Below are positions 26,990-51,681 of a DNA stretch of 64,000 nucleotides, piece by piece (positions within the stretch are counted from its first letter, which is position 1; each line of letters starts with the position of its first letter). The stretch is from NCBI GenBank assembly GCA_030704615.1, contig CM060731.1:72602001-72666000 (forward strand). Direction: 5' to 3'. The notes under the pieces are model-generated. The model was given only the letters and a program-made list of their open reading frames with translations. It had not been told where the DNA came from and searched no databases. This DNA is from Takakia lepidozioides (lineage: Eukaryota > Plantae > Bryophyta). The position numbers were made by a program, and so were the translations under genes.

Positions 26990-28030
26990 CCCCTGAGGAT
27001 TGACAGCTACAAAAAATCTGCAAGGGTAGATGGTCATCTTGAAGGGGCGGTGGCAGCACAATTGATAAAATCAGGCACCTCCACAATGATCTCCACTTCC
27101 AAAAGAGGACCCTGGGAGGAAGTTCTCAAGATTTCTTCTGGCGCTTCTGAACTTGTGAGGACACTATATGAGGCACACTGAAAGAGGCTCTGAAATTTTT
27201 GAACCATGGAGGCATTTTCACAGAGTCAGATAATGAAGGCACCTTCTTCAACACATTTCATCCTGTTCATAAGTTGAGTTGGGTGTTTCCTAGAACTTCA
27301 AGCTCCAGATTACCTATGATTCCCTGTGGATCAATAGCTACAAGAAACCTGCATGGGTAGATGGTCACCTAAAGGCAGCAGCTGCAGCGGCACCTTTGAT
27401 AAAATCAGGTACCTCAACCATGACAACAGCTTCTGAAAGAGGATCAAGAGAGGGAGTCCACAATCCCTCTTCTGGCACTTCTGGGCATGTGAAGATGCTT
27501 TGTGCGGCAGGCAGTCTGACAGAGGCTCTACAGACTTTAAACCAAGGAGGCATTTCAGAACGTATGTCTGTCTCTTGCTTAAGTGCATCGAGATGGAAGG
27601 TCTGGAAGCTGGAAAGCAGATGCACACTCACATTATCCAAAGTGGGATTCCCGCCAAATGTTTTTCTACTCAACACCCTTGTCAACATGTATGTTAAGTG
27701 CAGGAGCATCATCATGGATGCTCACCAAGTGTTCAACAGAAGGGCTCAACCATCTTTGATCACGTGGAACACGATGCTTGCAGGGTATGTACAGCAAGGG
27801 CGGTATGGAGGCCTTGGAGACCTATGATCAAATGATGGGGGAAGGGGTGAAGCCCGACCACATCACGTTTCTGTGCATTTGCAATGCGTGTGCAAGCCTG
27901 GCAGCTCTGGAAAAGGGTGAAGAGGTGCATAAGGATGTAAAGGGAGTTTTCAACACTATGGCTGACCGAGATGTGGTGTCGTGGAACGCGATGCTTGCAG
28001 GGTATGCACAGCAGGGGCGCGGGATGAAGG
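26990..28030 (+). pseudogene. Second PPR pseudogene with duplicated N-terminal leader
   Basis: ~26995-27215 and ~27335-27555 are diverged direct repeats. They are followed by PLS repeats nearly identical to 24940-25300, with frameshifts. Confidence 0.75.
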
Positions 28031-28559
28031 TCTGCTTCTGTAAGGTACTTCTTTGTGATGCAGTGCAAAGCTTGTAGATGGATGAAGGACACTTGGTCAA
28101 AGGCACAATGCAGACAGCCTCTTGTGGCAATTCGTATAGCCTAGCGCAAATCTGTGAGAGCTCCAAAAGTAGGTTGCTTTCTTTCTGGCTGTTGTTCCTG
28201 CCAAAACTCTGTTGCTACTTCCGTGGGTGCGGGATGAAGGTGTACATGACCAATAGGACTGTAGGTGTTTGTCGTTGTATTATTTTTCAAATGAGTGATG
28301 GTGGGGTGTTGTGCAGTGTGTCTACTCCTCTTCTCATATGAGCTTCACTGTCGGCTGCACTCAAGTGACGACTCTTCTCACATCTCAGTCGTGCACGGTC
28401 TTCTCTTCAGACCCACTCCTCAACTTTATCTACTTCCCTACAGATTGAGTGCTTAATGTTGCATTTTTGTCAACGGTGTTGCAGATCCAGGGGCAGTGAA
28501 TACTGACATTTTGCGGGAAGTACCTGTTTGGCTTGCAAAGCTGAGCAATGTGCTTCTCA

Positions 28560-29170
28560 TGAGGTGTGACACCCAACATTATTACATTCATTTCTGTTCT
28601 CAATGCTTGTGCCAGCCTAGGGGCCCTGGAAAAAAGTACAGAGGTCCATGAGCTGACATCATTCTGGACACTGCCTTTGTCGATATGTATGCCAAGTATG
28701 GGAGCTTGAACAATGCTAGACAAGTTTTTGACAAAACGTCTCAACGAAATGTGGTCTCATGGAGTGCAATGATGGAGGCTTTTGAGATGTATGAGCAGAT
28801 GATACGGGAAGGCATAACACCCAGCAAGGTCACGCTCATTTCCATTCTCAATGCATGTGCCAGCATAACAGCCCCGGAGGAGGTCCATGCTGACATCATC
28901 AAAGATGGAGTTGCCTCATATATCCCTTTAGAAAATGAACTTTTTAACAGGTATGCCAAATGCGGCAGCTTAAAGGATGCACGGGATGTGTTTGACAACA
29001 TGGCTGAGCAAGATGTGGTATCATGGAGCGCAATCCCAGCGCAATGTCGATCGCAGGATATACTCAGCATGGGTTTGGTGTAGAGGCTTTAGATATCTAT
29101 GAGCAAATGATATAGGAAGGGGTGACACCCAACAAGGTTACGTTCATTTGTGTTCTCAAGGCCTGTATCA
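28560..29170 (+). pseudogene. PLS-PPR fragment
   Basis: [29 protein letters not shown] and [25 protein letters not shown], with indels and stops. Confidence 0.75.
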
Positions 29171-30036
29171 TTCTCTTCGACCAGTAGATGCCAATTAGAC
29201 GCTGCTCCATGACAATGCTGGGGGGTTTGAGGCTGCAGTGTCAAGCAGTCAACTGCTTGTAGGATAAGCAAGTTGATTCTTGTCATATGATCATGTCGGG
29301 GCTCTCTCTAGCAGCATTGTCGACTGAGCTTATGCCTAAGTCACCTGCATGATTCCACAATGGTGCTAGCCACATAGAATCTTGCAGACAGAATTAGGGT
29401 AAGTGACGGTGGTCCATGGGTTTGCCCACAACTCGCACTAACTGTTGAGGGCAGATGTGGGCCCCTGCATTGAACAATGCCTTGGAGAATCGCCTGTCAT
29501 CTGGCTTTTCAGCCTTTTGTCGGTGAGGGGTTGACGTAGTTGACCTACTTAAGGGTTTTGGAGTTGTTCAATCTATTTTTTCTCTCCTGCAGTCATGTGA
29601 GAAATGTTAGTGCCTCCCAAGTGTATGCAAGGTGTCCAGACTTGAGTCTAATTGGTTTCCAATGCTAATTTGCTGCAGACAGGGTCATTATGCAGTCACC
29701 TGTGGTTCAAGATTAGCATTTAGTCTCCAGGCAGCTCTGCCTTGCAACGATGCCTTCCACCAGCATTTCCCTTCCTTGTGTAGATCACAGGTCGGGCCCC
29801 TACTCACAACATCACTCCAATCAGCAGCATAGCTCTTCAGTTACAGGTCAAACGCAGAGTGCTTTGTGGAGTAGGAGGGTTCAATCATGCAACAAGCAAG
29901 ATTATAGCAGTTTTTCAAGTAGAGTGTCTTTGTCATTGGCCAGGCTCCATGGTAGAAACCAATTGAAAATTTAAAAATATCATATAAAGAACATTCATAA
30001 TACAAATCTGTCAGTTGTATCAAACCTCCCGTTCAT

Positions 30037-30200
30037 TTGTATTCTCGTGCATGTGCCAGCCAAGTAGCCCTGGAAAAGGGCAAAGAGGTTGATGCTGTCA
30101 TCACCCAAGCTGGGATTGCCCCAGATATCATTCCGGAGACTACTCTAGTTGACATGTATGCCAAATGTGGGAGTATGAAGGATGCATTATCAGCATGTGG
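30037..30200 (+). pseudogene. Single PPR (L/S) repeat fragment
   Basis: ACASQVALEKGKEV..TLVDMYAKCGSMKDA. Confidence 0.65.
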
Positions 30201-30775: not shown

Positions 30776-31909
30776 TGGCTCTGTCCCCAAGGGATAGAGG
30801 CATTGTGGAGATATCTTGGGGGGGGGAGAAGGGAGAACTAGGCTTATCCATTAAGCCTAAACTACCTAGTCTATGGAGGGTTGATGGGCATGATTCATGA
30901 AGCCGTGGAAAAAGTATGACTTACAACAACGAAGGGACGAGGAAGGACAGAGCCTCTTGGAGCCGCAAAAACAAAAAAAACGGATGCCTCTCCACTTCAA
31001 CTTTTTTGAGACTTTTTCACAGATTTTTTTCCTTAGGGGATAGAGGCCATGGGAGACTTTATTTGGAATTACTGTTTCCCTATGAACTCTTAGTTGCCAC
31101 TGACTGCAAACTGCATATCATACTTTATTGCAAATCAATGTTGCTGCACGTTTGCTCTCAAGGCCCAATTTGTGGGCTCAATTCCATGCATGAACAATTT
31201 AAAAATGGTGTGAGACACCCTAGGTGGACCTGAGACCTGTCCCCTTTCTTTAAACCAGATCCAACATCTGTGAAACATGAATCAAAAATCACTTTCTATG
31301 GTTGCCAGGTTACAATCTCCACGTCTGTTTTGCAGCCTGCCTTCACTTCTGTTTCGATCTTGTGTTGGTTGGCAGCCAAAAGATGAGCTGCCTCTAAGTG
31401 TATGGCTGCCCATGCGGCTTTCACATGTCGCCGCTGTGTTCGAGTAGACCCAACAGCAAAGCGCACAGTGTACACACCCCCTAACACCTGCATATTACCA
31501 CCACCACTCAGTCCCTTCACACGGCCTATTGCCTATGACCACACATATAAGCACAACAAATGCCGAACATCCCTTTTGACAGGGAAGAAAAAGCCCAGTC
31601 CCCCTCAGTGCCCAGGAGTTTTAAGTAGTTGAATCTCTCTCCCAATCTCATGTCCCTTGCACTTTGGGGGGCCCAAGGATTTGTGAATATCTATCCCATT
31701 CTTTCTGTCTCCCTCCCTCCACCCACTCCCAAAAGGTCTGAGGTTAGGTTGCAAATCTGAGTCATGTCACATTCACTAGAAAATACTCCTTGACAGCTCC
31801 AACTATTACAGAACAAATCTTGCTAGTAGCCAATGAACTTCCAATATTGCAAAGGTGAGGAGTCTACCGTGTGGGTAACGAAGATGCTGCCTTTTCTGTT
31901 CAAAGCTTC

Positions 31910-32235
31910 TGTCAAGTTATTTTACCACTAGTGTGAAACTAGCTAGGAAATAGCTATCTTTTACATATTGACATTTGGGATTGGCCCAAGTGTCAATCCA
32001 GGGGTCAAGGCAGATTTAGGCCCTGGAGTGGTTATCTTCACGGCAAGCGCGGGAGGCTCATCTTTCTCGAGTTGAGCCTCACCGCGCCTAGCTATGGCGC
32101 CGTAGTGTGGATTCCCCATGGCGTGGGGTGCACTTGGCTTGACTTGTATTTGAGTGATGAGGTTATATATGCATGAGTTTATGCTTCAGCTTTGTGAGCT
32201 CTCATGAGCTTGTGCTTGTATTCTTCTTCTTTATC
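31910..32235 (+). repeat. Terminal repeat A1 (326 bp)
   Basis: Identical by eye to 42001-42326. Confidence 0.95.
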
Positions 32236-33771
32236 ACTCGAGAAAGATCAGCTCGTATCTATGAGTGCTAGATACGAGTTAGTTGTAGCACTTGTGGTTT
32301 TTGCTTGAGATTGAGAGAAACCAAGTTGTTATGCAAGGAGCACCATGGAACTCTTGGTTGTTAGAAGCGGAGGCGATGTGGGTTACGAGGTGGTAGACCT
32401 TGGCATTCGATCTTCAGCTTCAGAGATGAAAGCACCATGCTGCAGGTAACTCCAGAGCACCTTGATGGTTTCAGATTGTGTACATGCATGAGCAAGCACG
32501 ATTGGGAAGAGGACCAGTCAAGAGCAGGTTATAGTGGCTTTGGTGGCAAAGCTGAGAACTGGACCTGGGAATGCGAGCTTTCATTGTGTGAAGGATTGCA
32601 AGACCAAGCGAAAGGGCTGATTTGGCTTGGGGCAAATCAATGCACTTTGTGGAGTATGGTGAGATTGGGTTCCAATCTCGAGATTCAGCATTGAGAGGGC
32701 TCTTGTCATGGCAAGAGCAGGGCTGGAATAGGAGCTAAGAGGTGCGGCAAGGCCATGGAATGTGCACCTGGGTTTCAGAGCTTGGAAGAAGAGCTCTTGC
32801 ACCACAAAAGAAGTGTCTTGTGGCTGGAAATGTAAGCCTTAGGGTTTCAGGAGCTTGGCAAAGGCTGTGGAGTGCTTAGTCTTGTCTTAGAGAGCATCAA
32901 GGAGCCAAGGAGCCAAGATAGGGGGCTGATATCTCTTGTGTGAAGAGGTTGCATGTGTGGAGCATGTATTCAGCTCATTGAAGCTTCCATCTTCAAGCTT
33001 GGAGGGCAAGCAAGGAAGAGGGAAGGGCTGACTTCCCTTATGTGAGGGCAATGTATGTGTGGAGCATGCTATCAGCCTGGTGAAGGCTTGCACTTTTAGG
33101 TGTGGGAGTGCAAGGAAGGAAGGAAGGGGCTGGTTTCCCTGTAGGGCATGTAGAGCATGCTTTCAGCCTGCTGAAGCTTGTATTTTCAGGTTTGTGGGTG
33201 CAAGAAATGAAGCAAAGGAGCTGATTCTCTTATGGTGAGAGTGGGGCATGTGTGGAGCATGCCTTCAGCCCATTGAGGCTCTTGTTTTCAAGCCTTAGAG
33301 AGCTAGAACGGAAGGTCTAGGGCTGGTTTCCACTTGGAGTGAAAGAAAAGCACTTGTAGGGCCTATGTGAGTTGGGGTTTCAACTTCAAGCTTGAAGGGA
33401 GCGCAACTCTTGAAGCAACAGATGTAGAGGGCTGGAATAGGCTCTAAGACAGATGTTATGGCCAATGAGAGTGCTTGAATGAGTGCTCACAAAGGCTGGG
33501 AACCAGCAGGGCTTGGTTGTTTGCCATTGAGTTTAGTGGCATGTTTGGGGAGGCTAAGTGAGAAAGAAGGCTTGGTTTGTGGCAACCACCTCATGGCTTA
33601 GGGCTACTATGGTGGTGTGTGGGAGCCGAAAGAGCAAGGATACCTTGCTGATTTCCTCACAGCCACCATAGCTCGGTGGAAAGAAGCCTAGAGTCCAAGA
33701 GACACAAACCCTAGCTTGGCGTGGCTAAACCCCTTGGAGAAATGGCTAAACTGCCAGAGCGGCCATGTGTG

Positions 33772-35450
33772 GGGCTGTGACAGGCTGTGGCAAGCTGTGA
33801 CAGGCTGTGCCCTGTGCCCTGTGGGGCTGTGACGGGCTGTGACGGGCTGTGACAGGCTGTGCCCAGTGGCCTGTGGGGCTGTGACGGGCTGTGATGGGCT
33901 GTGATGGGCTGTGACAGGCTGTGCCCTGTGCCCTGTGGGGCTGTGACGGGCTGTGTCAGGCTGTGACAGGCTGTGCCCAGTGGCCTTTGGGGCTGTGACG
34001 GGCTGTGCGGGGCTGTGACAGGCTGTGCCCTGAGGCCTGTGGGGCTGTGACGGGCTGTGACAGGCTGTGGCGAGCTGTGACAGGCTGTGCCCTGTGCCCT
34101 GTGGGGCTGTGACGGGCTGTGTCAGGCTGTGGCGAGCTGTGAGGGCTGTGACAGGCCGTGCCTGAGGCCTTTGAGGCTATGAGGGGCTGTGACAGGCCGT
34201 GCCTGAGGCCTTTGAGGCTGTGACGGGCTGTGAGGGGCTGTGACAGGCCGTGCCTGAGGCCTTTGGGGCTGTGACGGGCTGTGACGGGCTGTGACAGGCC
34301 GTGCCTGAGGCCTTTGGGGCTGTGACGGGCTGTGAGGGGCTGTGACAGGCTGTGCCCTGTGCCCTGTGGGGCTGTGACGGGCTGTGTCAGGCTGTGGCGA
34401 GCTGTGACGGGCTGTGACGGGCTGTGCCCAGTGGCCTGTGGGGCTGTGACGGGCTGTGACGAGCTGTGGCAAGCTGTGACAGGCTGTGATGGGCTGTGAC
34501 AGGCTGTGCCCTGTGCCCTGTGGAGCTGTGACGGGCTGTGATGGGCTGTGACAGGCTGTGCCCTCTGGCCTGTGGGGCTGTGACGGGCTGTGACAGGCTG
34601 TGGCAAGCTGTGACAGGCTGTGATGGCTGTGATGGGCTGTGACAGGCTGTGCCCTGTGCCCTGTGGGGCTGTGACGGGCTGTGTCAGGCTGTGATAGGCT
34701 GTGTCAGGCTGTGACAGGCTGTGCCCAGTGGCCTTTGGGGCTGTGACGGGCTGTGCGGGCTGTGACAGGCTGTGCCCTGAGGCCTGTGGGGCTGTGACGG
34801 GCTGTGACAGGCTGTGCCCATGGCCTTTGGGGCTGTGACGGGCTGTGAGGGGCTGTGACAAGCAGTGCCCATGGCCTTTGGGGCTGTGACGGGCTGTGAG
34901 GGGCTGTGACAGGCCGTGCCCATGGCCTTTGGGGCTGTGACGGGCTGTGAGGGGCTGTGACAGGCCGTGCCTGAGGCCTTTGAGGCTGTGAGGGTTGTGA
35001 GGGGCTGTGACAGGCCGTGCCTGAGGCCTTTGAGGCTGTGACGGGCTGTGATGGGTTGTGGCAAGCTGTGACAGGCTGTGATGGGCTGTGACAGGCTGTG
35101 CCCTGTGCCCTGTGAGGCTGTGAGGGGCTGTGAGGGGCTGTGACAGGCCGTGCCCATGGCCTTTGGGGCTGTGACGGGCTGTGAGGGGCTGTGATAGGCC
35201 GTGCCTGAGGCCTTTGAGGCTGTGAGGGGCTGTGAGGGGCTGTGACAGGCCGTGCTTGAGGCCTTTGAGGCTGTGACGGGCTGTGAGGGGCTGTGACAGG
35301 CCGTGCCTGAGGCCTTTGGGGCTGTGACGGGCTGTGAGGGGCTGTGAGGGGCTGTGACAGGCCGTGCCTGAGGCCTTTGAGGCTGTGACAGGCTGTGAGG
35401 GGCTGCGACAGGCTGTGCCTAGTGGCCTGTGGGACTGTGACGGCTGTGAC
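33772..35450. repeat. ~1.7-kb array of 10-bp GGCTGTGAC(A/G)-type units with higher-order variants, inside the retroelement leader
   Basis: Continuous ggctgtgacg/ggctgtgaca/ggctgtgagg units punctuated by gccctgtgccctgtgg and gcctgaggcctttg spacers. Confidence 0.95.
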
Positions 35451-36187
35451 CAGTGAGCTGTGTGGGCCTGTGCTGGTCTGTGGTGGACCGTGTTGACTTG
35501 TGGACGGCCTGTGCTGACTCGTGGAGGCACTGGTGGACTGCCTAAGGACTGGCATGTGGTCTGGAAGGCCGAATTTTGAAGCTCGTGGAGGGCGGTTTGA
35601 GGAGTATCTTCATGATATTCCCATGGTCATGCAAGTGAGGGTAGAGAGGAGAGGCAGAGTGTTGGGATGAGAGCATGCTGGGGTTAGGCATTGCTTTAGC
35701 TTCTCTTCCTCGTAGTTTCCACCCTCTCATTAGGCCAAGACCTTTCCGTAGGTGGAGGCAAGAGTCAGTCCGGGTTTGGGCTGGGGTGTCCTTGCAGGAG
35801 CAACACCGTGGAGTTGTTTTTGGTGTGGGGGAGTTGTCGATCTGATTTCTTGTGTTTGGATCCCCTCCATACCTGCATGCTTGACTGTGCGCCATGCTAG
35901 TTTTGTGTGGGCGCTTGTTTTTATAGGTGATTGGTCCGGATTTGATCACCGGCCAGTCCTAGAGCATGCTGTCGATGGTGAGGCTAGGGTGATGACCAGC
36001 CAGACCATCATTGTTTCTCCTGTGGTGAGGTTGGAGGTGATGACCAGCCAACCATATGAGTGCTTGCGGTGGATGCAGGTACAGGTGTAGGCTATGTTAG
36101 GAACTTAGTATTCCAAACCATAAGCCGCAACAGGTTCTCTACCCGGTTACCTTGTGGAGAGGGGGTTAGGGACATGTTCATGACCGG

Positions 36188-38340
36188 TTGAGTGTCAACA
36201 CGGAGGTGCCACTAGTTGCTGGGGATAGTGCCGGTTCGAGCACTAGCGATACTAGTGGGTACACGAGACGAGGTGTACGGTTTAGGCCACCTTCACCTCA
36301 TGTGTCTTCCACGGAAGGTTCTGATTCGGATTGTGAATCAGGAGGACTCATACCGGCGGTGCAAGTTGTTTCTTTGCCATTGTTGTGGGACACAATGGAG
36401 GAGATGTATGGAGCTACCAAGGGCCACGAAGGTACTCTGGGGCGGTGGGCACCATCGAGTTGGATGATTTTATCCAAGAGTTTGATAGTTGGTGTGATTT
36501 GCAGCAAATGCGCAATCCACAACTATTTACGCCTTTCATGGCATGGAAGGGGCTGTTTCAGCACCTTGAGGGGCCGCCTATGGATGATTACCATGAGTTC
36601 AGGCGGGGGCATGAGGTTGAGATCGAGGAGTGGAGGATGTACTGGTCACCCGACTATGTCTCCATCACTAGGGGCACTAGAGCCACGAGGGCAGTGGCTA
36701 CACCTGCCGCTGCACCGGCAGCTTCAGCAAGCAGCAGTGGGACTGGTGGTACAGTAGCTACGACGTCCACCCAAGCCACTACCGCACCAGCACTAGCACC
36801 CGTGCCTGCCTTCAACCCTGTTGTGGAGTTCTTCGAAGAGTTGAGAGGGAACTACCAAGGGGTGAGGACAGAGAAGTTGCGGAGCTTGCAAGAGTTCCAA
36901 CGGAAGCCGACCGAGAGCTTGAGGAAGGCTTTCACTCGCATGAGGCGCTTGATAAATGTAACCCAAGGGGTTACGGAAGCTCAGGCAGTCCAATTCTGGT
37001 ATGGGATATTGGACAAGGAGCTGAGGAGAAGGGTGCGGGATGCAACTCTCCTACAAGCGGCCCAACCCACCTTAGCAAATGTGTTTTTGCTGGCAGAGCG
37101 GATAGAGCTCAACATGGTGGAGGAACGAGTGGTCATGGTGGGATTTGCTAAGGAGACACCACGGGGTAGTGGTGCTCCTAGCCAACCACTACCTCAACGT
37201 GGTCAAGGCAACAAGGGGGCTCAGGTGAAGCTCAGGGAAGGGCAGAGAGGACCTCAGATGCAGGGGTCTCTCTCTTCATTTGCTGGCCAACAACGGGCGG
37301 ATGTGGTGTGTTGGACATGTGGAGGACCCCATGTCAAGAAGGATTGTCCAGAGGGAGGCAAAGGGCCGGCACATGCACAGCCTGCACAGTTACAGTGTGG
37401 GCATTGTGGCAAACACGGGCATGGAGAGGCTCAGTGTTATGGTTTGCATCCTGAGTTGCGCCCAGGCCAGTTCCAAGGGAACAATGGTGGCCGGGGGCGA
37501 GGTGGAGCAGCCTAGAGGGGACGAGGTGGCCAGCCACGAGGCCAAGGGCAAGCTCAACGTGGCCAAGGACGCGGAGGTCAGGGTGTTGACCAAGGCATGG
37601 CCAACCGGCTTCAGCAGCTAGAGCAGAGGCTCGCTGCCATGGCTACAGCTCAGGTGGTACCGGCTCTAAGGCCGGATGGTCCACCTCCTGCTCCTGAGGG
37701 AGGAGATATGGGAGGCATGGGATTCATGTGTGGAGCAGCACTACCACTAGTGCAGGTGGAGTCTGCTGCAGCCGTGACTCGAGGAGCAGCACGAGTTCCT
37801 GAGCCACGAGGTGCAGAGGTGGAGTTGGATCCACAGCGTGGGGAGGCAAGCCGTCAGGCTAGGCTTCCTCAGTCATTCACATTGGCGGAGACAGTGTCGA
37901 CGCCATCCATGGCACCTAGTTCTCGCCCGACTGTTACCGAGGCGGAGGTTACTATGCCATTGGGGAGAGCTACAAGGGTAGCACCACTACCTAGCGTTGC
38001 CAAGGCTACGGCAGCTAGTGTGCTGCTAGGAGCGGCCATATCTGTGTGCCAGGCTCCATTGTTCTCGGCTACCATGATTGCGACGCCGGGGGTAAGACCA
38101 GCTGAGGTGTTCAGGCTGGCAGCTACACTCTGTGAGAGTGGGGAGGTTACTTCATCTTCTGCGGAGATAGTAGGAGGTGTAGTGCCGGAGGGATCCTCGG
38201 ATTTGAGGGTTAAGACTGCCACGGCGGCGCCATGGCAAGCTGCAGCTGCCAGGTTGATGGAGCTGCCAGCTAGGCCAGCCATTGAGCGCGCCATGGTGAC
38301 ACCTGGAGTTGTCATGTTAGACAACCAGGATGGCATTTTT
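36188..38340 (+). CDS. Gag-like polyprotein region with two zinc knuckles (disrupted)
   Basis: CWTCGGPHVKKDC and CGHCGKHGHGEAQC. A 1-nt frameshift at ~36421 (the second copy reads MYGATKGPRRYS in frame). In-frame TAG at 37513-37515 where the second copy has Gln; the same frame continues from 37597. Confidence 0.8.
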
Positions 38341-38730
38341 CTGTTTGAGTGGACCGGCAGGCAAGAGGTACCGGCCACTGCGGGTCTTGTTGGACTCGGG
38401 AGCTCAGCCATTGATGCTGGGCAGAGCTGCTATTGCAGGCTTGGGCCTCACGGAGGCGGATATGGAGCCTTGTCCTTTCCAGATACAGACGTCTTTGGGA
38501 GGATCGGAGCAGGCTCGGGGCATGACACGGCGTGAGTTGGCTATCAGACTACGGCCAGATCACCCCATTGTGACAGACGCAGTCTCATACGATGTCCTGG
38601 TTGGTGGGGCAGTGTTGTACCCCATGGGCTTCACCCTGGATTTTTGGGAGGAATCAGCTTCCTATAGGCCTGCATGGCAGTCAGGGGAGGGCCGGCGTGT
38701 GCAGCTCCCTGTGACGTTCATAGGAGGAGT
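38330..38730 (+). CDS. Retroviral-type aspartic protease domain
   Basis: VLLDSGAQPLMLG active-site motif and downstream YDVLVG. Confidence 0.8.
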
Positions 38731-39069
38731 TGCGGTTGCCCAGCGAGGCAAGATGCCGACACTAGCAGCATTCACAATGGCAGTGAGTTGGCCTAGAGAG
38801 TTGCTTGAGGGCAATGCTCATTCAGAGGATGTACCACCTCCGGGAGAGCAGGATGACATGTATGGTATGGCGGAGTTGCCTACCATGGTTGCTCAGACTC
38901 CATTGTGGGGCACGAGCCAGGATTTGCAGCGGGATGCTGATCGACGGGTGCAACAAGCCTGGGTGGAGGCTTTTGTACCGTCAGGAGAGGAGGAGAGTGT
39001 GGGGATTGCACCAGGACCACCTCAATTGTCTCCATTGGACACCACACCTATTGTGTGGCAGTATCCGGA

Positions 39070-39757
39070 TGAAGGCATTTGTCTTCTGGACTTGTTTGGC
39101 GGGATCAGCACCGGATTGGCTGCTGTGTTACAAGCAGGTGTACGAGTTCGGCGTTACCTGTATGTGGAGAGGGATGAGACTGCACGACGCGTTTCACTTC
39201 GCCATGTTGCTTAGTTGGTGCAGCGGTACCCTGAGTTGTTGTCGGTATCTGCAATTCGTGGATATCAGCAGGCCTTGCCAGCAGACATTTCGTTGCTGGG
39301 GGCGCAGGATTTGGAGCGGGTTGGCTCCATTGATCTGGTAGTGGCAGGTTGGCCCTGCCAAGGGCATTCATCAGCTGGGCATGGCAATGGATTGCGAGAC
39401 TCGAGGTCGGGTCTGTTTTGGGAGATGGTGCGGGTTTTGCGCCACTTGCAGCTTCATCAAGCTGTATCTCCAGCATACATCTTGGAGAATGTGCCACTGA
39501 TGGGCGATTCTCGGGCCAGGGTGATGGCCAGTGTGCATCAAGTCCGGTCGTGGCTTGGGTCAGCAGTGTTGCTAGATGCAGCTACAGTGGGGTCACGGGC
39601 TCATCGTCCACGGCTATGGTGGACTAACATGATGCCACCCGCACTGCTCAAGCGTGCATTTGATGGGGTGCAGCGGCCAGCACATCTCACAGTGGATAAC
39701 ATTCTGGACACAGGGAGGCAGTCTCAACGTGTGAGACACGATGACCGTTCGCCCTTG
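39070..39757 (+). CDS. C5 cytosine DNA methyltransferase domain, DNMT3/DRM-like; C-terminally truncated with one internal stop
   Basis: Motif I LLDLFGGISTG, II YLYVERD, III ADI, IV DLVVAGWPCQGHS, V SGLFWE, VI ILENV, VIII LDAA..AHRPRLWWTN. In frame with the protease. TAG at 39212-39214; motifs IX-X lost at the deletion. Confidence 0.9.
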
Positions 39758-41550
39758 TCACGGATCACCAGCCACTCAAGTGGTTGATGGAGTCAGACAA
39801 GCTTACGGGGAAGCTTGCACGGTGGGCACTTATACTCCAGGAGTATGACTTTCAGGTTGTGCATCGACCGGGTTTGGTCAATCGGGATGCGGATGGATTG
39901 AGTCGCAATCCATGCATGAGCCAGCAGGATGACACTGGAGCTCGGTGGCATGGTGAGACGGACGAGGAGATGGTGCCGGGATGGCACGCATCTGCATTTT
40001 TGTGTATCTTGGCATCGGGAGGTCAGATTGGACCTACAACAGGGATGACTGTAGACGGAGTGTCTGAGGACCCTGAGGCTAGTGATGAGCTAGGTGGTGC
40101 CAGAGATATACATGAGGATTCGGCTGTGTTGGACTACCTCCGCACGGGAGACACGGCAGCCATTGTGACTGCCAGGGAGAGGGATCGGATCCTGCAACGA
40201 GCCAAGAGGTTCAAGTGGGAGGGGATACACCTACTTCGAGTGTGGGAGGGTGGTCGGGTGAGGATTGTGCCTCACCCCACACAGCGTGCACGGTTAGTGC
40301 GGCATGCCCATGAGGAGTTGGGGCATTTTGGAGTGCGACGCACTCACAGTTTACTGCAGGGGCAGTATTGGTGGCGTGGTATGCATACAGAGGTGCAACA
40401 GTTTGTGGCTAGGTGCATGGTGTGTGACAGGGTGCGTGCTTCGTTTAACGCCCCTACACCACAGTTGCATCCTTTACCTATCATGGGATTGGGCTACAGA
40501 TGGAGTCTTGACTTCGCAGGACCGTTGCCACTGACTATGCGCCACCACAGATATGTGTTGGTGATGGTGGAGCACTTCTCCAAGTGGATTGAGTTGGTTC
40601 CATTGCCTGACAAGGCTAGTGAGGGGGCTGCGTATGCATTCTTGGATCGTGTGCTTAGCCGATTTGGTGCTCCAGCTGAGGTACTCACGGACCAAGGGAG
40701 AGAGTTCTTGGGGGAGTTTCAGGCTTTGTGTGATAAAGCCTTGATAGACCACCGCACCACTTCTCGGGATCATCCTGAGGCCGATGGCTTAGCAAAGAGA
40801 GTTGTTCAGATGGTGAAGAGGGGTTTGCGCAAGTATGGCTTGCAGAAGGGACACCTAGGAGATTGGGATCTTCAGGTTCCTTGGTTAGCCATGGGCTACC
40901 GGTTCAGCAAACAAGCATCACTTGCCTCCTTCTCACCATATTTCCTTCTCTTTGGCCGAGAGCCGGATTTGCCTGCAGCCATTCGTAGGGACACTGCTCA
41001 AGTCCTTAACCTTGACGATCCGGACGTGTGGGTACGTGCATGTGATCAGCGTGCAGAGTTGTTCAAGAAAGTCATGCCCATGGCTTTTGAGAACCTTGCC
41101 ATTGCATAGCACCGTGATACGTTGAGGTATGCCACTATACGTGGTGGAGGATATCGTCCTGGGGTTCGGAGGTTTAGCCCTGGTGACTATGTTTATTTGC
41201 AGCAGACTGCTCCTACGACTCTGGATGTTACTGCAGGGCGTGTTATTCTGAGGGTTCGAGAGGTGTTGCCCTCAGGGGTCCTGATCTTAGAGGGTCGGGA
41301 TGGCATGACTTGGAAAGACCATGTGCGTAATTGTGCGCCATGTCACCTTCCCAATGTCGATGGCAGAGTTGACCCAAACTTGGCAGTGGTACCTGCAGGT
41401 TTGAGGTGCATGCTCTGTGGGTCTGCCAAAGGGGCAGCCACCATGCTGGTGTGTGATCGGTGCTCAAGGGGTTGGCATATGGGATGCTTGACACCACCTC
41501 TTGAGAAGGTTCCTGACGGAGATTGGTTGTGTCCACACTGCTTGGGATAG
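39754..41550 (+). CDS. RNase H C-terminal remnant, DDE integrase and C-terminal PHD finger
   Basis: LVTDHQPLKWL..LARWALILQEYDF..HRPG..NRDADGLSR (RH end). HAHEELGH..CMVC (HHCC), LDFAGP, TDQG, DGLAKR (Lys where Glu is expected). TAG at 41107-41109, then in frame CMLC..CDRCSRGWHMGC..WLCPHC (C4HC3). Confidence 0.9.
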
Positions 41551-41808
41551 TGACAGTGGACATGACTGGAGGCAGCTAACAAGACATGGGAGGCCAAGCT
41601 CATAGGAGTCAATACATGAGATCCCAAGCTCAAGTTCACAGGTTGCAAGACGGCGACTAACGATGGGGCAACTCTTGCACCCGGCCTCTTGATCTACCGA
41701 GTTTGAGTGTAGTAGGGATAGTGGTGGAGGACTTAGTGAGGCTATGGTCACTATCACATCTTGTGGCTACCTGGACTTAGAGGGACCTAAGCACCAGCTA
41801 GGGGGGCG

Positions 41809-41998
41809 ATTGTGTGGACTAGTGACTGCCATAGTGGGCAGCGTAGTGGCAGCCTAGTGACTGACTAGTTGTAGCCTAGTGGTTGGACTAGTGGCTGGAC
41901 TAGTGGTAGACTAGTGGTATACTAGTGTGTGGTGTGCACATGTGTTGTGTGGTTTTGGACAGCGATGTAGTTGTGTAGCGATATGTATGCGCACGACA
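41809..41998 (+). repeat. Terminal repeat B1 (190 bp), rich in GACTAGTGG sub-repeats
   Basis: Matches 42328-42517 with one substitution. Begins just after the PPT. Confidence 0.95.
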
Positions 41999-42000
41999 GC

Positions 42001-42517
42001 TGTCAAGTTATTTTACCACTAGTGTGAAACTAGCTAGGAAATAGCTATCTTTTACATATTGACATTTGGGATTGGCCCAAGTGTCAATCCAGGGGTCAAG
42101 GCAGATTTAGGCCCTGGAGTGGTTATCTTCACGGCAAGCGCGGGAGGCTCATCTTTCTCGAGTTGAGCCTCACCGCGCCTAGCTATGGCGCCGTAGTGTG
42201 GATTCCCCATGGCGTGGGGTGCACTTGGCTTGACTTGTATTTGAGTGATGAGGTTATATATGCATGAGTTTATGCTTCAGCTTTGTGAGCTCTCATGAGC
42301 TTGTGCTTGTATTCTTCTTCTTTATCTATTGTGTGGACTAGTGACTGCCATAGTGGGCAGCGTAGTGGCAGCCTAGTGACTGACTAGTTGTAGCCTAGTG
42401 GTTGGACTAGTGGCTGGACTAGTGGTAGACTAGTGGTATACTAGTGTATGGTGTGCACATGTGTTGTGTGGTTTTGGACAGCGATGTAGTTGTGTAGCGA
42501 TATGTATGCGCACGACA
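42001..42517 (+). repeat. Terminal repeats A2 (42001-42326) and B2 (42328-42517)
   Basis: Direct comparison with A1 and B1. Confidence 0.95.
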
Positions 42518-44264
42518 CTTCTACCAAAGTCGAATTGAGAGTGTAGCCATTGTCTGGATCACTTGCAGGAGGTTTGAGACGGAAGCACACTAACGAAAAT
42601 GTTCGAGGTACCACGATCTATCCTCCTAGGCCCCAGGAAGATGTATCGTAATTTCCATTTTGTAATCACATCCACACAAATGAATAATTTCTGCTTGATC
42701 AGTAGGACATGAGGTAGTCCTACAATCATGTCGTGCATTTATGGTTTTGAACATGTCAGTGTCAGTGACAGAATGGGCAGGCAAGAAAGAACCTCATATC
42801 TGGAGTCTGTCCGCACAAGGCCTTCAAAGTACTCAGCATTATTTATGTGATCTCTGATGTAAGACCGCAAGCCTGATACGCCATGAAGACGCAATACCAT
42901 CCACAGCTTTAGAGACCTGTATCAAAAGTTTTGGTCAGAATCTTTCCTGGGAATTATTTTGGCCACTGGTCGCAGCATTACATGTTCAAATGGACTTTCT
43001 GGATTTTAAAACATCCATAAGCAAAGAGTGGGAACCTGTGCATTTTTGTGTTAGCAAGGAGTGTGGGGTAAGGATCAAATCAGGGAAGCAACTTAAGCGT
43101 GAGAAAAAAGAAGTTACAAGTCTTGGAGAGAAAGGCCAATATGTTGTCAACCTGAAACGTTGACCTAGTGGAATTTGCCAGTCTTTGTAATCCACAACCA
43201 GGTTTTCCTCTGATGCCTGCATCAAAATGCCATGTAGCAAAAGTGTTACATTGCACATCCACAAAAGTTGGAACATCTATATAAGTGCTGAGTAAAAACT
43301 CCACACGGACATGGGAAGGTAACCCGTGTCATTATTTCTGATCCAATGTCAAACTTAAACTGGCGGAACATAGAAAGTGTAGTCTTAACATTCAGTGACA
43401 AGCTGCCATCACCCCCATCGACTCATCACTGACAGCGGGTGTAGCACGTATATTATTATGCTCAAATTCATGGACATATACCATCATAAAAATCTTCATA
43501 GTGAGATTATTCCACTTTCTGAATGTGTCCAGAAAACTCAGCCATGATGTCGGCAAGCACTCAGGAGGCAAAAGGACATCCACAAATACTGTCAACGTTT
43601 AAGGAGGTGACGCAGCGGGAATGGAGGAGAAAGACATCCCACCATGCATACCTTATTCCGCAAATACTCTGGGTTGGTAGAGAGAGCTGCTACGAGCAGA
43701 CTTGAGTCCTGCAATGGATGGACATCAGAACTTTTTCTGGATGGATAATACAAAGTGTAACCTAAGCAAAAGCGGTTGACTATCGGTCCTCAAAATGTTG
43801 TCACTGGATTCCTCCATATTGAAAGGCAGAAGGCAGGCAGATGCTGTGGATAAGCAGAGGATTGGGGGGACTGCGTGATAACAGTGCAGCAAAATTATGA
43901 TCACTGGAGTTACATTTCGAGGTGATGGCATACACATGCATGGGAAGGGCCAAAAAGAGGAGCAAGGAGTACAGGTAATGTGTTCAGGCAACCTTGACCC
44001 ACAGTGTGGAGCAATCAAAGTTGGTGAGCAACCACTTGTGTGGATTCATAGGAGTCGGCCTTCTCTACGCCATTCAGATGGTGCCGAAACTCTGGGCAGA
44101 TGCATGCATTTCCTGCGAATGCTGCATCGACATGGAACCACATCCCATAGTTGGCATGCCCATACCATCCCACAGATCGGTATTGAAGTCCATCAGGATT
44201 GAGGGGAAAGCTATAAAATGACCAAAGGCATGCTGGTAAGCTGATTTCATCAACTGCAATAGAA

Positions 44265-44800
44265 TGTACTCATAAGACGTTGTTTGCCATAGCCTTGTGG
44301 CCATAGACCCCACACCAGTTTGGATGGAACAAAAGGGACCAGAAACTACCTTGTGAGGGGTTCACTCCGGTAGTGTGCAACTCACCTCGGCGTAAATAAG
44401 TAGTTTGGGCTTTCCAGATATCCTCTAGAAAGCCCTTCACACAAGCATCAATCTGTTGTGAGTGAGCAGCCCAAAAGGTAGACCCCAACAGGGCCAGGGA
44501 TTTAGGCTCAGCCTCGAGAATTTTTAAGTTGGTGAACAAGGTGCCGGGACAATGTTCTTGATCATCCTGAACAGGGTCATTCTATGGTGAAAATGCCCCA
44601 GACAATGTATCGGAAAATGGATATTGTCTTCAGGTACCCCACAACATCAGGCAATTACAATCTCCGCTTCCTCTCTACATCTGTTTATTGTTCAAAGGTT
44701 GGGTTCCCGCCCTGAGTTTAAATTTCAGTCTAGTGCCAAGGGTAGATAGGCCCTTGAGATCATCCTTAAGGTCCTCGCCCATGTCATGGACTGGAAACAA
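44265..44800 (-). mobile_element. LINE 3' fragment inside the decarboxylase intron
   Basis: Reverse complement resembles 10500-10970 and encodes RLKFKLRAG. Confidence 0.55.
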
Positions 44801-46257
44801 GTTCAAGGAAGTTTTAAATACCGAACTACACTCAACTTGCAATAGATAAAGCAGGAGAGGCTCAATGTGTGAGCCTGTCGCATATCATGGCATCCATCAG
44901 TTCGAAGAACTATGTGCATTCTATCTCATGTCAAGTGACTTGAGGAGCTCCTTCAAGGCTTTGACTCAGTATTTCACTGCAACACAGTGGTATCAAACAT
45001 AATATGGAAACAAGGGAAGTCTTTTGGAGTATCTCAGCTTAGGCATGGGTTAATGATGGTGATTCCTAGCAGTTTGATCCACAGCAGTGAATCAATATTT
45101 CATTGAAAAGAAACATGACATACAATAGCAATGTCGCCCAGTTCTGATAAGGGGTCGACAGCTGTTGATGACGTGGTCCCAACCTGCTACCCCAGTCCCA
45201 TCATGCATACAAGCATGTCAAACAGATGATCCAAGCGTCAAATTATGAAAGCTGGATATTTGTAACTCTAACCTCTCCAATAGATGCACTTGCCTCACAC
45301 ATCTTCTGCTATTAGCAGTTTGTTGTTGTGCAGCAATAATGAGTGGACTTTATGATCACATGGGGGCCATTCACACATAAATGCATTTTTGGTGCTAAGA
45401 TCACTAGCAGGTCAATACCCGCAAAGGGACCAGAAAGAAAACATATCAGTCCTGTCATGCAGATGATACTCCTAACAGACAAGCAGCCAGAATCCCTGTC
45501 CTCTACTGAAGAGAAGTACCATCCAGGCCCAGATACCAAGTTAATTTCAGCAGACGTTTAGATGTTTGGTACCGATGCAGTGAGAAAGAATGGCACAAGG
45601 CCAGCTGCAACATCATCCCCTATAGCTTTTGCAAGCTTTGCTGGTGACAAGGCATAGTTTGTAGAGGCATCTGTTTGTAGCGGTCGAAAATTGTTCATGT
45701 TGATGCCAGCTATCTGTATACGATCACAAAGACAGTTAGACAACGGGCACGTAAGGTCCAACCAGAAACAGGAGAAGAAGCAGGGAGGGGTAGTAAGAGC
45801 CTGGGGAGGATCTGTTGATTCTTGTGCGAGATGTCTACCTGGCAAGCCTTTTGCACACATGAATGGCCTTGATCCGAAGTGTACATGACAAGTTTACCCA
45901 GCGCTTCAGCCTCAGATATGCCATATGTGCTGGTCACTTCTTTCAAAGCACGGTTGCGGGCTGCCAGCATCACTACCAACACCGCCTCACTGGCAGTTCC
46001 TTGAATGACTCCCCCACCCTTGCCTGCCATTTCACACTCCCATCTTTTGGTGGATGGCCAGCCAACACTGCCCACTATCATAGCAAATGAATAGGAGTAT
46101 TCCAGTATCGCTGGCTCAGAATTGTGGACACTCAAAACACCTAGCTGGTAGGCAAGCTAGTGCACTGCCCTCATAACCATAGGTAGAGAATGGACTCATA
46201 ACATGTTGTTTGCTGTAGCATTTTGGCCATAGACCACACACCGAGTTTGGGTAGAAC

Positions 46258-46520
46258 TAAAGGGGACAGACTGTTTCAGCTTCCAATTTCACTAATGGGA
46301 ATGGTCACGCACGGACACGATGATGGAGCTTACGGTCAGTATTCTCTTGAGTTCTGGGTGGGAAATTCAAACTTTACAATTGGTTCTTTGGCACGTTACC
46401 TGCGCCAGCTGAAGAAGCCAACCTGAACATTTTCGATTACCAACTTGAAAACGAGTTTTTCGAATCATTTTTAAGAGGTAAATCGAGATGTTTGGATGCT
46501 CTTAAACCCTTCAGGCCGGA
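46258..46520 (+). mobile_element. Possible DNA-transposon protein fragment
   Basis: LPISLMGMVTHGHDDGAYGQYSLEFWVGNSNFTIGSLARYLRQL resembles transposon-derived proteins of seed-free plants (from memory; family not assignable). Confidence 0.35.
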
Positions 46521-47465: not shown

Positions 47466-50226
47466 TCACCAGTAATCCCCACAAGGGCAAACCCCATCTT
47501 GGAAGCAGTGAATCCCACTGGCATCCCGAACAACAATTGCTCGCCCAACAACCTTTGAGATGAACCTGGCATCCATGTGGCAGCCACCACAGCACCGAAG
47601 GTTCTTGTCGACACCGAAAGGTGTTCCAGGGGATGTGCTGATGAGGCCAAATGCAATAGCCAGCTTCTCACCATGGTAGCAAAGAGAGAGATCCTTTTGT
47701 TGCTCCTCCACATCCTGAAGTAGAAAGTTTGTATCAGGCGCATATCGAGCCTGGACCTTCATCTGGCATGACAATCTCTTCAACTCTACATGGATTTCCT
47801 CAATTTGAGGATCTGAATTGTCATCTGCAACGAATTTATGCACCCGCTTATCAACCACAATGCAGCAGCAATCTGGATCCTTTCTGACATCTCCGTTCAT
47901 CATCATTCTCTTCACCTTTGCAGTATCGTTCCACCTGCCAGGTGCAGCATAGATGCTTGGTAGTAGCACATAAGTGCCAGCCTCATATGGATCCCACTTG
48001 AGAAGGCATTTTGCTGCACGTTCTGCCACCTCCACATTGCCATAAATTCTGCAAGCACCAAGCAAAGCCCACCACACCACAGCATCTGGTTCAATTGGCA
48101 TTCTGTCAATGAAGTCCTCTGCCTCATCCAACTGCCCTGCACGGCCAAGAAGGTCCATCATGCAGAAAATGCCAAAACGTCCTCCTGTACAACTGGAAAA
48201 CCTCCATCATCGGCACTAGCATTGAATGCACTGTAGGCGTGAGGCCATACTCTCGAATCATGCAATGAAAGTAGTGACAGCCTTCATCTACTAGACCAAC
48301 ATGGCTACATGCAGAGACAAGACATATAAAGGTGACCACATTTGGCTTCAACCCTTCCTGTTGCATTTGTTCAAATAGTGGCAGGGCATCCCTACCACAC
48401 CCATGCTGAGAGCATATCCTGCCATCATTGCACTCCATGAGACAACATTTGGATAAGCCATGTTGTTGAACACTTGACGTGCATCCTTCATGCTCCCACA
48501 TTTGGAATACATGTCAGCAAGTGTGGTCTCCAGAATGACATCTGTTGCAATTCCAGCTTTGAGGATGTCAGAATGAACCTCTTTGCCCAGTCCCAAGGCT
48601 GCTAGGCTGGCACACGCTTTGAGGACAGAATTGAAAGTGACTATGTCGGGCATCACCCCTTCCAATACCATTTGATCATACATACCCACAGCCTCTATAC
48701 CATACCCATGCTGAGCATATCCTGCGGCCACAGCACTCCATGAGACCACATTTGCCTTCAAGCCTTCTTCCTTCATTAGTTCAAATAGTTGTAGGGCCTC
48801 CCTGCCACAACCATGCTGAGCATATCCTGTGACGCAATTCCAGCTTTCATGATGGCAGCATGAGCCTCTTCGCCTTTTTCCAGGGCCACCATGCTGGGCA
48901 CACACAGAATGCAAACATTGAGTGTTGGCGCAAGTTCTGGCCATGTCATTTGCTTCGTGAAATCATTCACTGTTACCAGGCGACACTGCAGTCACAAGAA
49001 AGAGCAAACTTTGGTCAGTGGGTGACATGGTGCTAGTCTAGCTGATATTGGCAGCAACATTGAAGATCTCAAACAGTTTTGAATAAATCTGCATTAAACC
49101 TTTAAGATACAGAAACGGCTAACCGGGAAGGCTATGCTTTGGTTGCCTAGGGAAAAACAGCAGGAGGGAAGCATTTTGCAGAATTTGCCATTGAAAAGAG
49201 TATTCAATAAACATGCAATTCCTCTTGGAACCTCAAGCTGTTGTGCTAGGTCAATGCCAAGTAGCAGGCTGGCTAGATCAGCAAGCAGATATTAGTAGCT
49301 GGTCATAACAGCTCACAAGCTGTACCAATTTGCAATGTAATGCACAGCCACATCCCTACATAATTATGTGTGTACAAACACCCTCATCCATAGAACATTG
49401 AAGGACTCAAGAGAGACTTACAGATTCTGCCAAAATCTTGAGGACTAAAACTCGAGTCCTTCTTCATGGGAGATTGCATCGTCCTCATTCCGTACATTTG
49501 GCATACATGTCAATAAGGGCAGTCTCCAGAATGATACCTGTTGCAACTCCAGATGGCAGCATGGACCTCTTTACCTGTTTCCAGGGCACCCAGGCCTGCA
49601 CACGCATTGAGAACACAAGTGAACGTGACCTTGTCTGGCATCACCCTTACCCCCATCATTTGCTCATAGATCTGAAGAGCCTCCCCGCCACAGCCATGCT
49701 GACTACTATCCTGCAATCATGACATTCCATGATACCACATCTTGTTTTGCCATATTATCAAATACTTCATGGGCATCCTTTATCCTCCCACATTTGGCAT
49801 ACATGTCGACAAGGGCAGTCTCCAGAATATCCTCTGGGAGCAATTCCAGCTGTCATGATGTCAGCATGAACCTCTTTGCCCTTCTCCAGGGCCATCATGC
49901 TGGCACACGCATTGAGAATGCAAATAAACGTGACTTTGTCCGACGTCATTCCTTCCTGCTTCCCTTTCACAGCCATGCTGAGCATATCTTGTGATCATAC
50001 ATTCCATGAGACAACATCTCTCAGTGCCATATTCTCGAATACTTTGACGGGCCTCCTTAACACTCCCACATTTGGCATGCATGTCGACAAGGGTATTCTC
50101 CAGAATTCTATCTGGTGCAATACCAGCTTTCACAATGTCAGCATGAACCTCCTTGCCCTTTTCCGGGGCTGCCAGGCTTGCGCATGCATTGAGAGCACAA
50201 ATGAACGTGACCCCATACGGCATCAC
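47466..50226 (-). pseudogene. PLS-class PPR-E-DYW gene(s), frameshifted, with complete but degenerate DYW domain
   Basis: ORF 48161-47466 contains DLLGRAG..WALLGAC..HGEKLA..KNLRCCGGCH..CPCGDYW*. Upstream PLS repeats are broken across frames at 48200-48930 and 49490-50226. Confidence 0.85.
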
Positions 50227-51681
50227 CGCTCATCAACATCCATTTGATTCGCAGAATATGACAAGAGTGGAAATACATGTAGCCTACCAATTCGAGGAAA
50301 ATTACCACTTGCGCTGTGACCCTACACCCAATCTATATAGCCACTCGTTACCCCTTCCCAAAATCCTTAAAAAAAACCAGGGTAGGTAGAGAATTGACAA
50401 GTACATAGGCTCCAAACCGCCATGTCATTGTCAAATTGGCATGTAGGTCATCTGGGCTGCTGTTTCAGCTCTGAACCATATTTCTTTTGCTACAATCCAT
50501 ACTAGAGTTGTATGTGAAGGAGAGAGTAAGGTGATGTATTGTATTACTTGAGAGAGCAGTAGGTAGAGGGTGACAGCATGAACCCACAGCCCTATTCCAT
50601 TTGAGTGAATTGACAAGTACATAGCCTCCAAACCAACATGTCATTGTCAAATGGGCATGCAGGTCATTCGGCACATCATCATCAACACGGATGCATTGGA
50701 AATGGAGTATCAATGTAAGGGCATGCTAGGCAGTGCCAAGTTGATTCACCCAAAATGTAGTATGAAGGGCAAGAGCAGGCAAAGAGAAAGAGAGAAAAGA
50801 AAAGAGTTGAACGAATGAGAACCCAACATCAACATTACTCAATAATACACAAGCCAATGAGTAGCTGGTAAAGAGCAATGTACCCCACGGTACAGTGAGG
50901 CGTCATCTGGCAAAGTTCTCATGGTTTTGGAGTTGTTGCAAGCAGATCAAGCTAAAGAGCAACTCTGGCATGAGTTCTTCTCAGATCCTTCACAGTGGTG
51001 CGACACCAGGTTTGACAAGGTGAGGTTATCTTCATTCAGGACGTGAATGTGGCAGAGGGCTTTGACTGAAGGGGATTATATCCTCAGTTGTTAAATTTAT
51101 GACAATTTCTCCATCGCGCTCAATGGCTGGCATAGTTGGCAACTCCTGCAACCTTGCAGCTGTCGCTTGCCATGGCACAGCTGTGGCTGACTTCACCCTC
51201 AAATCCAAAGCATCCATAGTCTGCACCTTATCTGCTATCTCCGTAGATAGTGCCGATGTATCACCACTCTCACAGAGTCTAGCTGCTAGTCTGAACACAT
51301 CAGCTGGCCGAATCCCCGGCATTGCAATGGTCATTGCAAAAAACAATGGAGCTTGGCAAACCGCCGTAGCCGCCCCCAACAATGTACTGGCTGCATCTTG
51401 CTTTGCAGCACCACCCACTTGCATTTCCCAAACCACACCAACTCTCCCCAATGGTACTCGTGGCTCTACCTCTGACACACTTGGGCGAGCGGGTGTCGTT
51501 GATGGCGTAGGTGGCACTGTCTCAGCCAATGTAAAGGACTGTGGAAGCATTGTCTGACAACTCGCTTCCCCCTTTTGTGGATCAAAATCCACATCCGCTC
51601 CTCTTGGCTCAGGAACACGCATTGTTGTTCGAGTGACAGCAGCAGCAAAGTCCAATACATGCAATGGCCCTGCAAGTGCAG

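Follow-up and report, generated by a model that had tools for sequence, protein, structure and literature searches.

Introduction

Why retrotransposons keep a cytosine methyltransferase of their own has been a question since 2018, and the known hosts of such elements are hard to work with. One such element, KnitGypsy-Dnmt3 of Klebsormidium nitens, combines, according to the accessible parts of the original report, a DIRS-type repeat structure with a typical Gypsy domain composition (de Mendoza et al. 2018, PMC5890265). Its Gypsy-borne DNMT3 domain displayed no activity in yeast, a result that the authors call inconclusive. The same report describes an independent capture, SymbioDIRS-Dnmt3 of Symbiodinium, which has the arrangement A-coding-B-A-B and carries out de novo CG methylation in yeast. 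Gypsy-DNMT3 elements are called 'streptophyte' in the accessible portions of PMC12344493 and bioRxiv 10.64898/2026.05.21.726589. The latter source is devoted to EpiLTRs/DAM-LTRs, which likewise belong to Ty3/Gypsy and combine a DNA methyltransferase with a histone reader, but differ in having a chromodomain, DAM and a DNMT4-related DNMT; its authors treat them as distinct from 'streptophyte Gypsy-DNMT3'.

Here we analyze an element from the moss Takakia lepidozioides, located in a stretch of 64,000 nucleotides (hereinafter, the window). Its kind has been known since 2018 (PMC5890265, as far as accessible) and is extended here to liverworts and mosses, with a stop, primer sites and a palindromic junction. 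As in KnitGypsy-Dnmt3, for which a Ka/Ks below 0.2 is given, Gypsy domains are accompanied by an intronless DNMT3-related domain and DIRS-like repeats; unlike KnitGypsy-Dnmt3, in which the DNMT lies in the Pol ORF, the present family has a land-plant host, and a conserved stop separates its DNMT from RT. The accessible part of PMC5890265 makes no mention, for KnitGypsy-Dnmt3, of a PHD, self-priming site, purine tract, palindromic junction, 4-bp duplication or DNMT-RT stop. The kinship between the two is judged by features: no K. nitens sequence is named among the relatives, and the name Klebsormidium is absent from the 88 relative rows and from the 20 clusters checked for names. SymbioDIRS-Dnmt3 similarly has a DNMT3-like domain and A-coding-B-A-B repeats, but encodes a tyrosine recombinase, whereas the window element has a DDE integrase (PMC5890265). 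The same distinction holds for DIRS/PAT elements in general: split direct repeats are common to both, but the window element has an rve integrase and 4-bp duplications and no tyrosine recombinase. With the self-priming Tf1/Sushi and Tcn1 chromoviruses it shares predicted self-priming, a DDE integrase and a C-terminal histone reader; it differs from them in its split repeats and in the C-terminal chromodomain, which is absent and has a PHD finger in its place (Neumann et al. 2019, PMC6317226, accessible text). That LTR-FINDER survey mentions neither a methyltransferase nor a PHD in its accessible text, and would likely miss an A-coding-B-A-B layout.

Neither land-plant copies nor the DNMT-RT stop nor the junction turned up in the literature searched, figures and supplements of which may show land-plant copies; none of the three is mentioned in the accessible parts of PMC11982613, PMC9033089, PMC6317226, PMC6453930, PMC10952607, 10.1101/363937, 10.1101/2021.02.12.428880 and 10.1101/2021.11.30.470311. 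The family corresponds to gene models annotated as 'hypothetical' in Marchantia polymorpha, a plant with genetics and methylation mutants, TEs being de-repressed in its met mutants (10.1101/363937), and the fixed stop, primer sites and palindromic junction predict the amount of enzyme, the form of the cDNA and the relevant cytosines. Because standard LTR finders do not accommodate the layout, LTR surveys, as well as DNMT3 gene counts, in seed-free plants may be affected.

Anatomy and decay of the element

The element is of the Ty3/Gypsy type and extends from 31910 to 42517, with both ends preserved (Table 1). Its repeats are split as A-coding-B-A-B, and its ends are of the TG..CA type, with TGTC on the left and GACA on the right, flanked by the CTTC duplication. 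After A1 come a long leader containing a tandem array, a gag that encodes zinc knuckles, PR, DNMT, an RNase H remnant, integrase, a PHD finger and the terminal block B1-A2-B2. The leader array is G-rich and spans 1.8 kb.

Table 1 Features of the element in the window (positions are those of the window)
Feature	Position	Strand	Basis
Left 4-bp target-site duplication CTTC	31906-31909	+	identical 4 nt after right end
Repeat A1, LTR-like unit TG..CA	31910-32236	+	100% identity to A2, 327 nt
Predicted self-primer, complementary to 32236-32248	32060-32072	+	13/13 pairs
Predicted primer-binding site, self-priming type	32236-32248	+	pairing with 32060-32072
Tandem array in 5' leader, units of 10/42/51 nt	33716-35493	+	repeat families D1, D2
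gag, two zinc-knuckle-like motifs (37306-37461)	36170-37515	+	PF03732 weak, E=0.006; homology to Marchantia P0002/P0003
Aspartic protease, LLDSGA	38321-38680	+	PF13650 weak, E=0.016
DNMT3-like C5 methyltransferase, motifs I-VIII, 73% of domain	39071-39757	+	PF00145; frame; PDB matches
10-bp microhomology at deletion joint, DNMT / end of RNase H	39748-39757	+	X1 contigs; spacing in intact loci
RNase H remnant, other frame	39748-39897	+	PF17917 positions 73-105, E=1e-7
DDE integrase, H2C2 zinc domain and rve core, then stop at 41107	40102-41106	+	PF17921 3e-16; PF00665 8e-14
C-terminal PHD finger	41395-41550	+	PF00628 2.5e-11
Purine tract abutting B1 on its 5' side, predicted to prime the plus strand	41800-41808	+	~30-nt context common to moss-associated loci
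Repeat B1	41809-41998	+	vs B2: 1 mismatch / 190 nt
Internal junction, palindrome GACA-GC-TGTC (right end, then 2 nt, then left end)	41995-42004	.	terminus comparison; loci
Repeat A2	42001-42327	+	327-nt match to A1
Repeat B2, right end GACA	42328-42517	+	match to B1; terminus
Right 4-bp target-site duplication CTTC	42518-42521	+	pairs with left CTTC

The DNMT domain of this copy is dead. An in-frame TAG at 39212-39214 falls between motifs I and IV, at a site where 98% of the depth of run X1, which may be the window's own sample, has a sense codon. In addition, a deletion at the 39748-39757 microhomology takes motifs IX-X, all of RT and ~60% of RNase H; spacing in intact loci indicates that ~1.86 kb was lost, and at the joint 26 X1 contigs continue past 39757 and 22 enter before 39748. 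In gag, the frame shifts near 36420 and is interrupted by a stop at 37513, many other copies having neither defect; in the protease, it shifts near 38336, and near 38565 a short stretch is missing. CHG context is shared by the stops at 37513, 39212 and 41107, as would be expected of damage by host methylation. The A/B repeat pairs differ at just 1 of 517 nt, whereas ~7.5 differences would be expected if the private changes of the copy post-dated its insertion (P=0.005; the expectation derives from 5 private changes in the 688 nt of window DNMT). Given this discrepancy between near-identical repeats and private changes, the copy was probably mobilized in trans not long ago, when it was already damaged, although gene conversion could also account for the similarity of the repeats.

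Affinity of the methyltransferase domain

The C5-MTase shares the frame from 38321 with the upstream protease, in agreement with the earlier note, which had also reported motifs I-VIII with intact PCQ and ENV. The motifs are indeed in canonical, unrearranged order, namely I (LFGG, ~39092), IV (GWPCQ, Cys at 39356), VI (ENV, 39485) and VIII (HRPR, ~39602), and the catalytic residues are in place, but the in-frame TAG between motifs I and IV had been overlooked. The proposed comparison with PF00145 yields 51.9 bits (cut-off 22; E=1e-13) for the part after the stop. When the window domain is searched against PDB sequences, DNMT3A/B/C account for the first 29 of the 53 matches (best 8.7e-9), DRM and M.HhaI come next, and chains of DNMT1, MET1 and CMT are absent among the matches at E<=1, which bears out the suggestion that the domain is closer to DNMT3 than to MET1/CMT. 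Consistently, a profile of 45 relatives matches DNMT3A at 6.7e-26, the best DRM-type chain at 6e-17 and HhaI at 3e-9, and the predicted structure of an intact natural relative (pLDDT 91) has DNMT3A as its best fold match (E 1e-19, TM 0.83 on the target). The domain resembles host DNMT3 (animal DNMT3A/B and, from the accessible text of PMC6453930, moss PpDNMT3b) in catalytic fold and motif order; it differs in lacking PWWP/ADD and introns, in an extra insertion after motif II, and in the low structural identity of the intact relative to DNMT3A (~22%). Motifs IX-X and an open frame, both missing in the window copy, are present in relatives. Among metagenome loci (the best 80 of 160, whose resemblance to Sphagnum proteins marks them as moss-like, mutually close kin and from few samples), the catalytic Cys is kept in 72/80 and the motif VI Glu in 74/78, even in decayed loci. 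These comparisons support the assignment of the window domain as a DNMT3-like domain of a retrotransposon.

The dN/dS across copies, which the earlier note had suggested to determine, is not that of neutral evolution: comparison of the window with individual loci gives a median of 0.13 and a maximum of 0.20 for the DNMT (over the 63 of 66 loci that are unsaturated) and 0.125 for the integrase, figures that are rough because dS is near 2. Among the moss-associated loci themselves, which are close kin from few samples, the ratio rises to 0.51-0.55 for DNMT and 0.45-0.53 for RT, high and alike in both domains, as would be expected of decayed copies. Variants within the genome exhibit only a modest synonymous excess (10/17, P=0.03). 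At the level of coding sequence, these ratios show that the DNMT domain is under purifying selection.

Distribution and phylogeny of the family

The family is of the Ty3/Gypsy type and very abundant: 80,884 of the 3,038,600 contigs of run X1 fall on 7.2 kb of the element, contig depth not being equivalent to copy number, and the DNMT bins are as deep as those of gag and integrase. Two runs from other studies cover all 30 bins of the element; run X12, which is RNA by guess only, has three contigs on it, and X16 has one. Protein searches returned 39 and 49 relatives, the named ones being from Marchantia polymorpha (22), Calypogeia fissa (3), Sphagnum (4) and Closterium (4), at identities of 54-79% for Marchantia, Calypogeia and Sphagnum and 39-45% for Closterium. 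No named fern, lycophyte or seed plant occurs in the 88 relative rows, and these searches returned no host DNMT3, DRM or MET1 sequences. The liverwort and moss relatives, together with the PLS/DYW PPR genes in the window, substantiate the earlier attribution of the domain to a retrotransposon of a land plant.

In a protein library clustered at 50%, 269 clusters are related at E<=1e-30; of 232 related proteins, 148 contain another retroelement domain, whereas 84 consist of the DNMT alone, many of those being short. Intact copies with motifs IX-X and RT, for which the earlier note had proposed to search, do exist: among the best 80 of 160 loci, those with flanks read GAG-ZK-PR-DNMT-RT-RH-INT-PHD as far as the contigs reach. 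The order PR-RT-RH-INT with a DDE integrase is thus present in intact loci, and the window copy lacks RT through its deletion. The A-coding-B-A-B arrangement is also found at four loci (L019, L060, L062 and L064). Insertions of ~0.8-1 kb in or beside RT at eight loci (L001, L013, L015, L017, L019, L028, L065 and L067), some repeated within a locus, probably represent a small non-autonomous element.

In the DNMT tree of 125 rows, which is midpoint-rooted and limited to named or multidomain rows with domains of at least 230 aa and without host DNMT3, two architectures correspond to two clades (support 0.998). The PR-DNMT-RT clade comprises 45 rows and includes Closterium and land plants, and the RT-RH-DNMT-INT-PHD clade comprises 80 rows, with one cluster named Scenedesmus. 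The latter is a large algal clade (P0025, P0030, P0032, P0142 and 76 further rows); no chlorophyte Gypsy-DNMT3 was found in the accessible portions of the literature examined. The window sits in a 20-row clade (support 1.0) alongside liverwort and moss copies. Distances in DNMT and RT correlate (rho 0.76, 58 proteins), and 14 of 21 strong DNMT splits recur in the RT tree, with two in conflict. The trees and architectures fit a single old capture after which the domain moved, in a tree that has no outgroup to order these events.

A conserved stop codon ahead of RT

In 46 of the 47 moss-associated loci that span the end of the DNMT and the start of RT, a stop codon (34 TAG, 12 TAA) occupies one position, 17 codons before the RT match, against a background of 1.3% stops per codon in the body of the DNMT. 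The stop is directly followed by CAACCCATG in 44 loci, and the frame is maintained across the spacer in 35/47. Proteins of Marchantia and Calypogeia end at a similar distance, about 75-80 aa past the DNMT, and in algal relatives such as P0024 and P0028 the DNMT is continuous with RT. The stop is known from relatives, the corresponding stretch being deleted in the window. The fixed stop places the DNMT of intact land-plant copies in the Gag-protease frame. The earlier description of the domain as embedded in Pol is therefore upheld with regard to the retrotransposon, but holds only loosely with regard to the position in Pol, since intact land-plant relatives separate DNMT from RT by the conserved stop.

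The context of the stop agrees in 5/6 nt with the tobamovirus readthrough motif UAG-CAR-YYA (PMC3542737, accessible part), and the full motif is found at the divergent locus L076. RT-RH-INT-PHD may thus be made by readthrough, or by reinitiation at a nearby ATG. From this arrangement of frames, the DNMT is likely part of an abundant Gag-PR product, with RT-RH-INT-PHD being the rare one; the presumed Gag-PR-DNMT protein would allow the DNMT to be packaged with Gag.

Priming, cDNA ends and integration

The 13 nt starting at the A1 end are perfectly complementary to a stretch upstream (Table 1), a match equaled by none of 2000 shuffles. Pairing at about the same distance but with other letters recurs in 10 of 18 locus rows (at least 10 of 12 pairs; best 80 of 160 loci), a proportion that tempers the prediction of self-priming. 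The purine tract, with its conserved context, abuts B1 and not A2. At the A2/B2 joint, the A end is fused to the B start over one shared base, with one extra base in the window and a 19-nt insertion in L060. The junction GACA-GC-TGTC recurs unchanged in L008 and L029; in L017, L059, L060 and L064 it is deaminated. The junction, the termini, the purine tract and the self-pairing all show conservation despite synonymous sites being near saturation. Duplications of 4 bp are also seen at L016, L042, L060, L062/L064 and L078; L016, L042 and L078 are A-coding-B elements with perfect duplications. Among the best 80 of 160 loci, A-coding-B accounts for 9-11 rows vs 8 for the full A-coding-B-A-B form, and the mirror form A-B-A-coding-B is represented by none of 18 5' ends (16 distinct). 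A symmetric two-end-circle model, which predicts the mirror form, is weakened by this absence.

Reverse transcription is predicted to be self-primed, and the plus strand would begin at the purine tract before B; with such a start, ordinary reverse transcription would therefore yield cDNA ends consisting of B-gc-A units. As the palindromic junction holds both integration ends, the cut is likely to be made inside end-joined cDNA, the DDE integrase cleaving the internal palindrome as GACA^GC^TGTC. The products would be either A-coding-B-A-B, which is mobile again, or the dead end A-coding-B, and a 4-bp duplication would flank either of them. As its simplest reading, the sequence of the junction suggests that ends are joined and that the integrase then cuts within the repeat, although A-coding-B could also come from B1xB2 recombination or assembly collapse. 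If integration does use an internal site of joined cDNA, it would depart from the textbook route of DDE retroelements.

The choice of target may involve the PHD finger, predicted to read unmethylated H3K4 and thereby to steer insertion off active promoters. The nearest PDB chains to the window PHD are those of CHD4, PHF12, KDM5B, KDM5A and ATXR5, which we take to be readers of unmethylated H3K4; the acidic residue before the first Cys, present in 33 of 46 relatives, is absent in the window PHD. Unmethylated-H3K4 reading by this domain is, accordingly, offered as a lead only.

Possible roles of the methyltransferase

The window copy is dead and internally deleted. For intact members, we favor, with a probability of roughly 60%, the reading that the long-conserved DNMT3-like domain is made with Gag, packaged and methylates the cDNA of the element itself; the packaged enzyme would act on new cDNA before integration. 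This reading is suggested by frame, conservation and selection, and the inactivity of the K. nitens domain in yeast speaks against it.

That same inactivity (PMC5890265, accessible part) would fit a domain kept for binding cDNA or RNA in the particle, or one that acts, together with the PHD, on host chromatin at the insertion site. EC in place of PC in motif IV of many algal relatives (about 80 vs 93) points in this direction as well. Animal DNMT3 pairs an ADD with its catalytic domain, and the combination of PHD and DNMT3 resembles that pairing. However, retention of the catalytic Cys and motif VI Glu even in decayed loci argues against a mere binding role, and the stop comes between DNMT and PHD, which are likely separate processed proteins. 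We regard binding or action on chromatin as unlikely.

The missing mirror form leads to another proposal, that the DNMT methylates the internal palindromic site so that the integrase cuts only the other copy and the internal junction that the next generation needs survives. Such shielding would account for the 0/18 count, the palindromic junction holds CHG sites with a CG adjacent, and excess production of the enzyme is predicted; moreover, the A-coding-B-A-B layout is found in each of the two independent DNMT3 captures, SymbioDIRS-Dnmt3 and KnitGypsy-Dnmt3 (PMC5890265, accessible part). Conversely, A-coding-B is about as common as the full form, so protection would be leaky, deaminated junctions can also be produced by host CMT, and LINE-borne DNMTs lack such a junction. 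Shielding is improbable on this balance, and we are just as hesitant about its broadest form, in which a green-lineage-wide DDE clade would integrate via the palindrome inside end-joined cDNA, instead of by its cDNA ends, while a DNMT3 made at Gag level shields the second site. If true, this restriction-modification logic would account for the two captures of DNMT3 by A-coding-B-A-B elements.

Finally, capture of a host DNMT3/DRM fragment by one copy by chance, followed by neutral evolution, for which the broken domain in the window and a tree without host DNMT3 rows might be invoked, can be dismissed: the architecture is common to several genera, the domain occupying a constant position in liverworts, mosses and algae, across the family the DNMT is covered to a depth similar to that of gag and integrase, dN/dS is far from neutral, the HMM match is clear, and the domain has no introns and is distant in structure from DNMT3A. 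Judged from these sequences, the DNMT in the window is no chance capture.

Surroundings of the element

The window contains a second, older and truncated element of a related family on the minus strand (51000-56700), which shares 80% identity over gag, breaks off close to the protease and has no DNMT; its leader and repeat A are partly recognizable, and a different short array is located near 54600-54900. Clusters of decayed PPR genes of the PLS class, which contain E and DYW domains, lie on either side of the DNMT-bearing element (24900-30200 and 47466-50250). Host exons at 5480-6588, 11344-13528, 45710-46156 and 59231-60866 correspond to CFAP58 (flagellar), an aspartate/ornithine carbamoyltransferase, a pyridoxal-dependent decarboxylase and a mitochondrial carrier. 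The carrier exon has five hits, the best named one being from Taxus at 61%. The CFAP58 exon and the PLS/DYW PPR genes indicate a land plant with flagellated sperm, likely a seed-free one. A small dispersed repeat is present in several copies in both orientations (4100-4200, 10498-10976, 44259-44799 and 46187-46271). At 58281-58850 there is a weak match to a TnpB/Fanzor-like zinc ribbon (PF07282, E=0.008, below cut-off), adjoined by a small repeat array at 57889-58156. An ORF on the minus strand with a weak zinc-knuckle match (16395-17210) is presumably ORF1 of a LINE.
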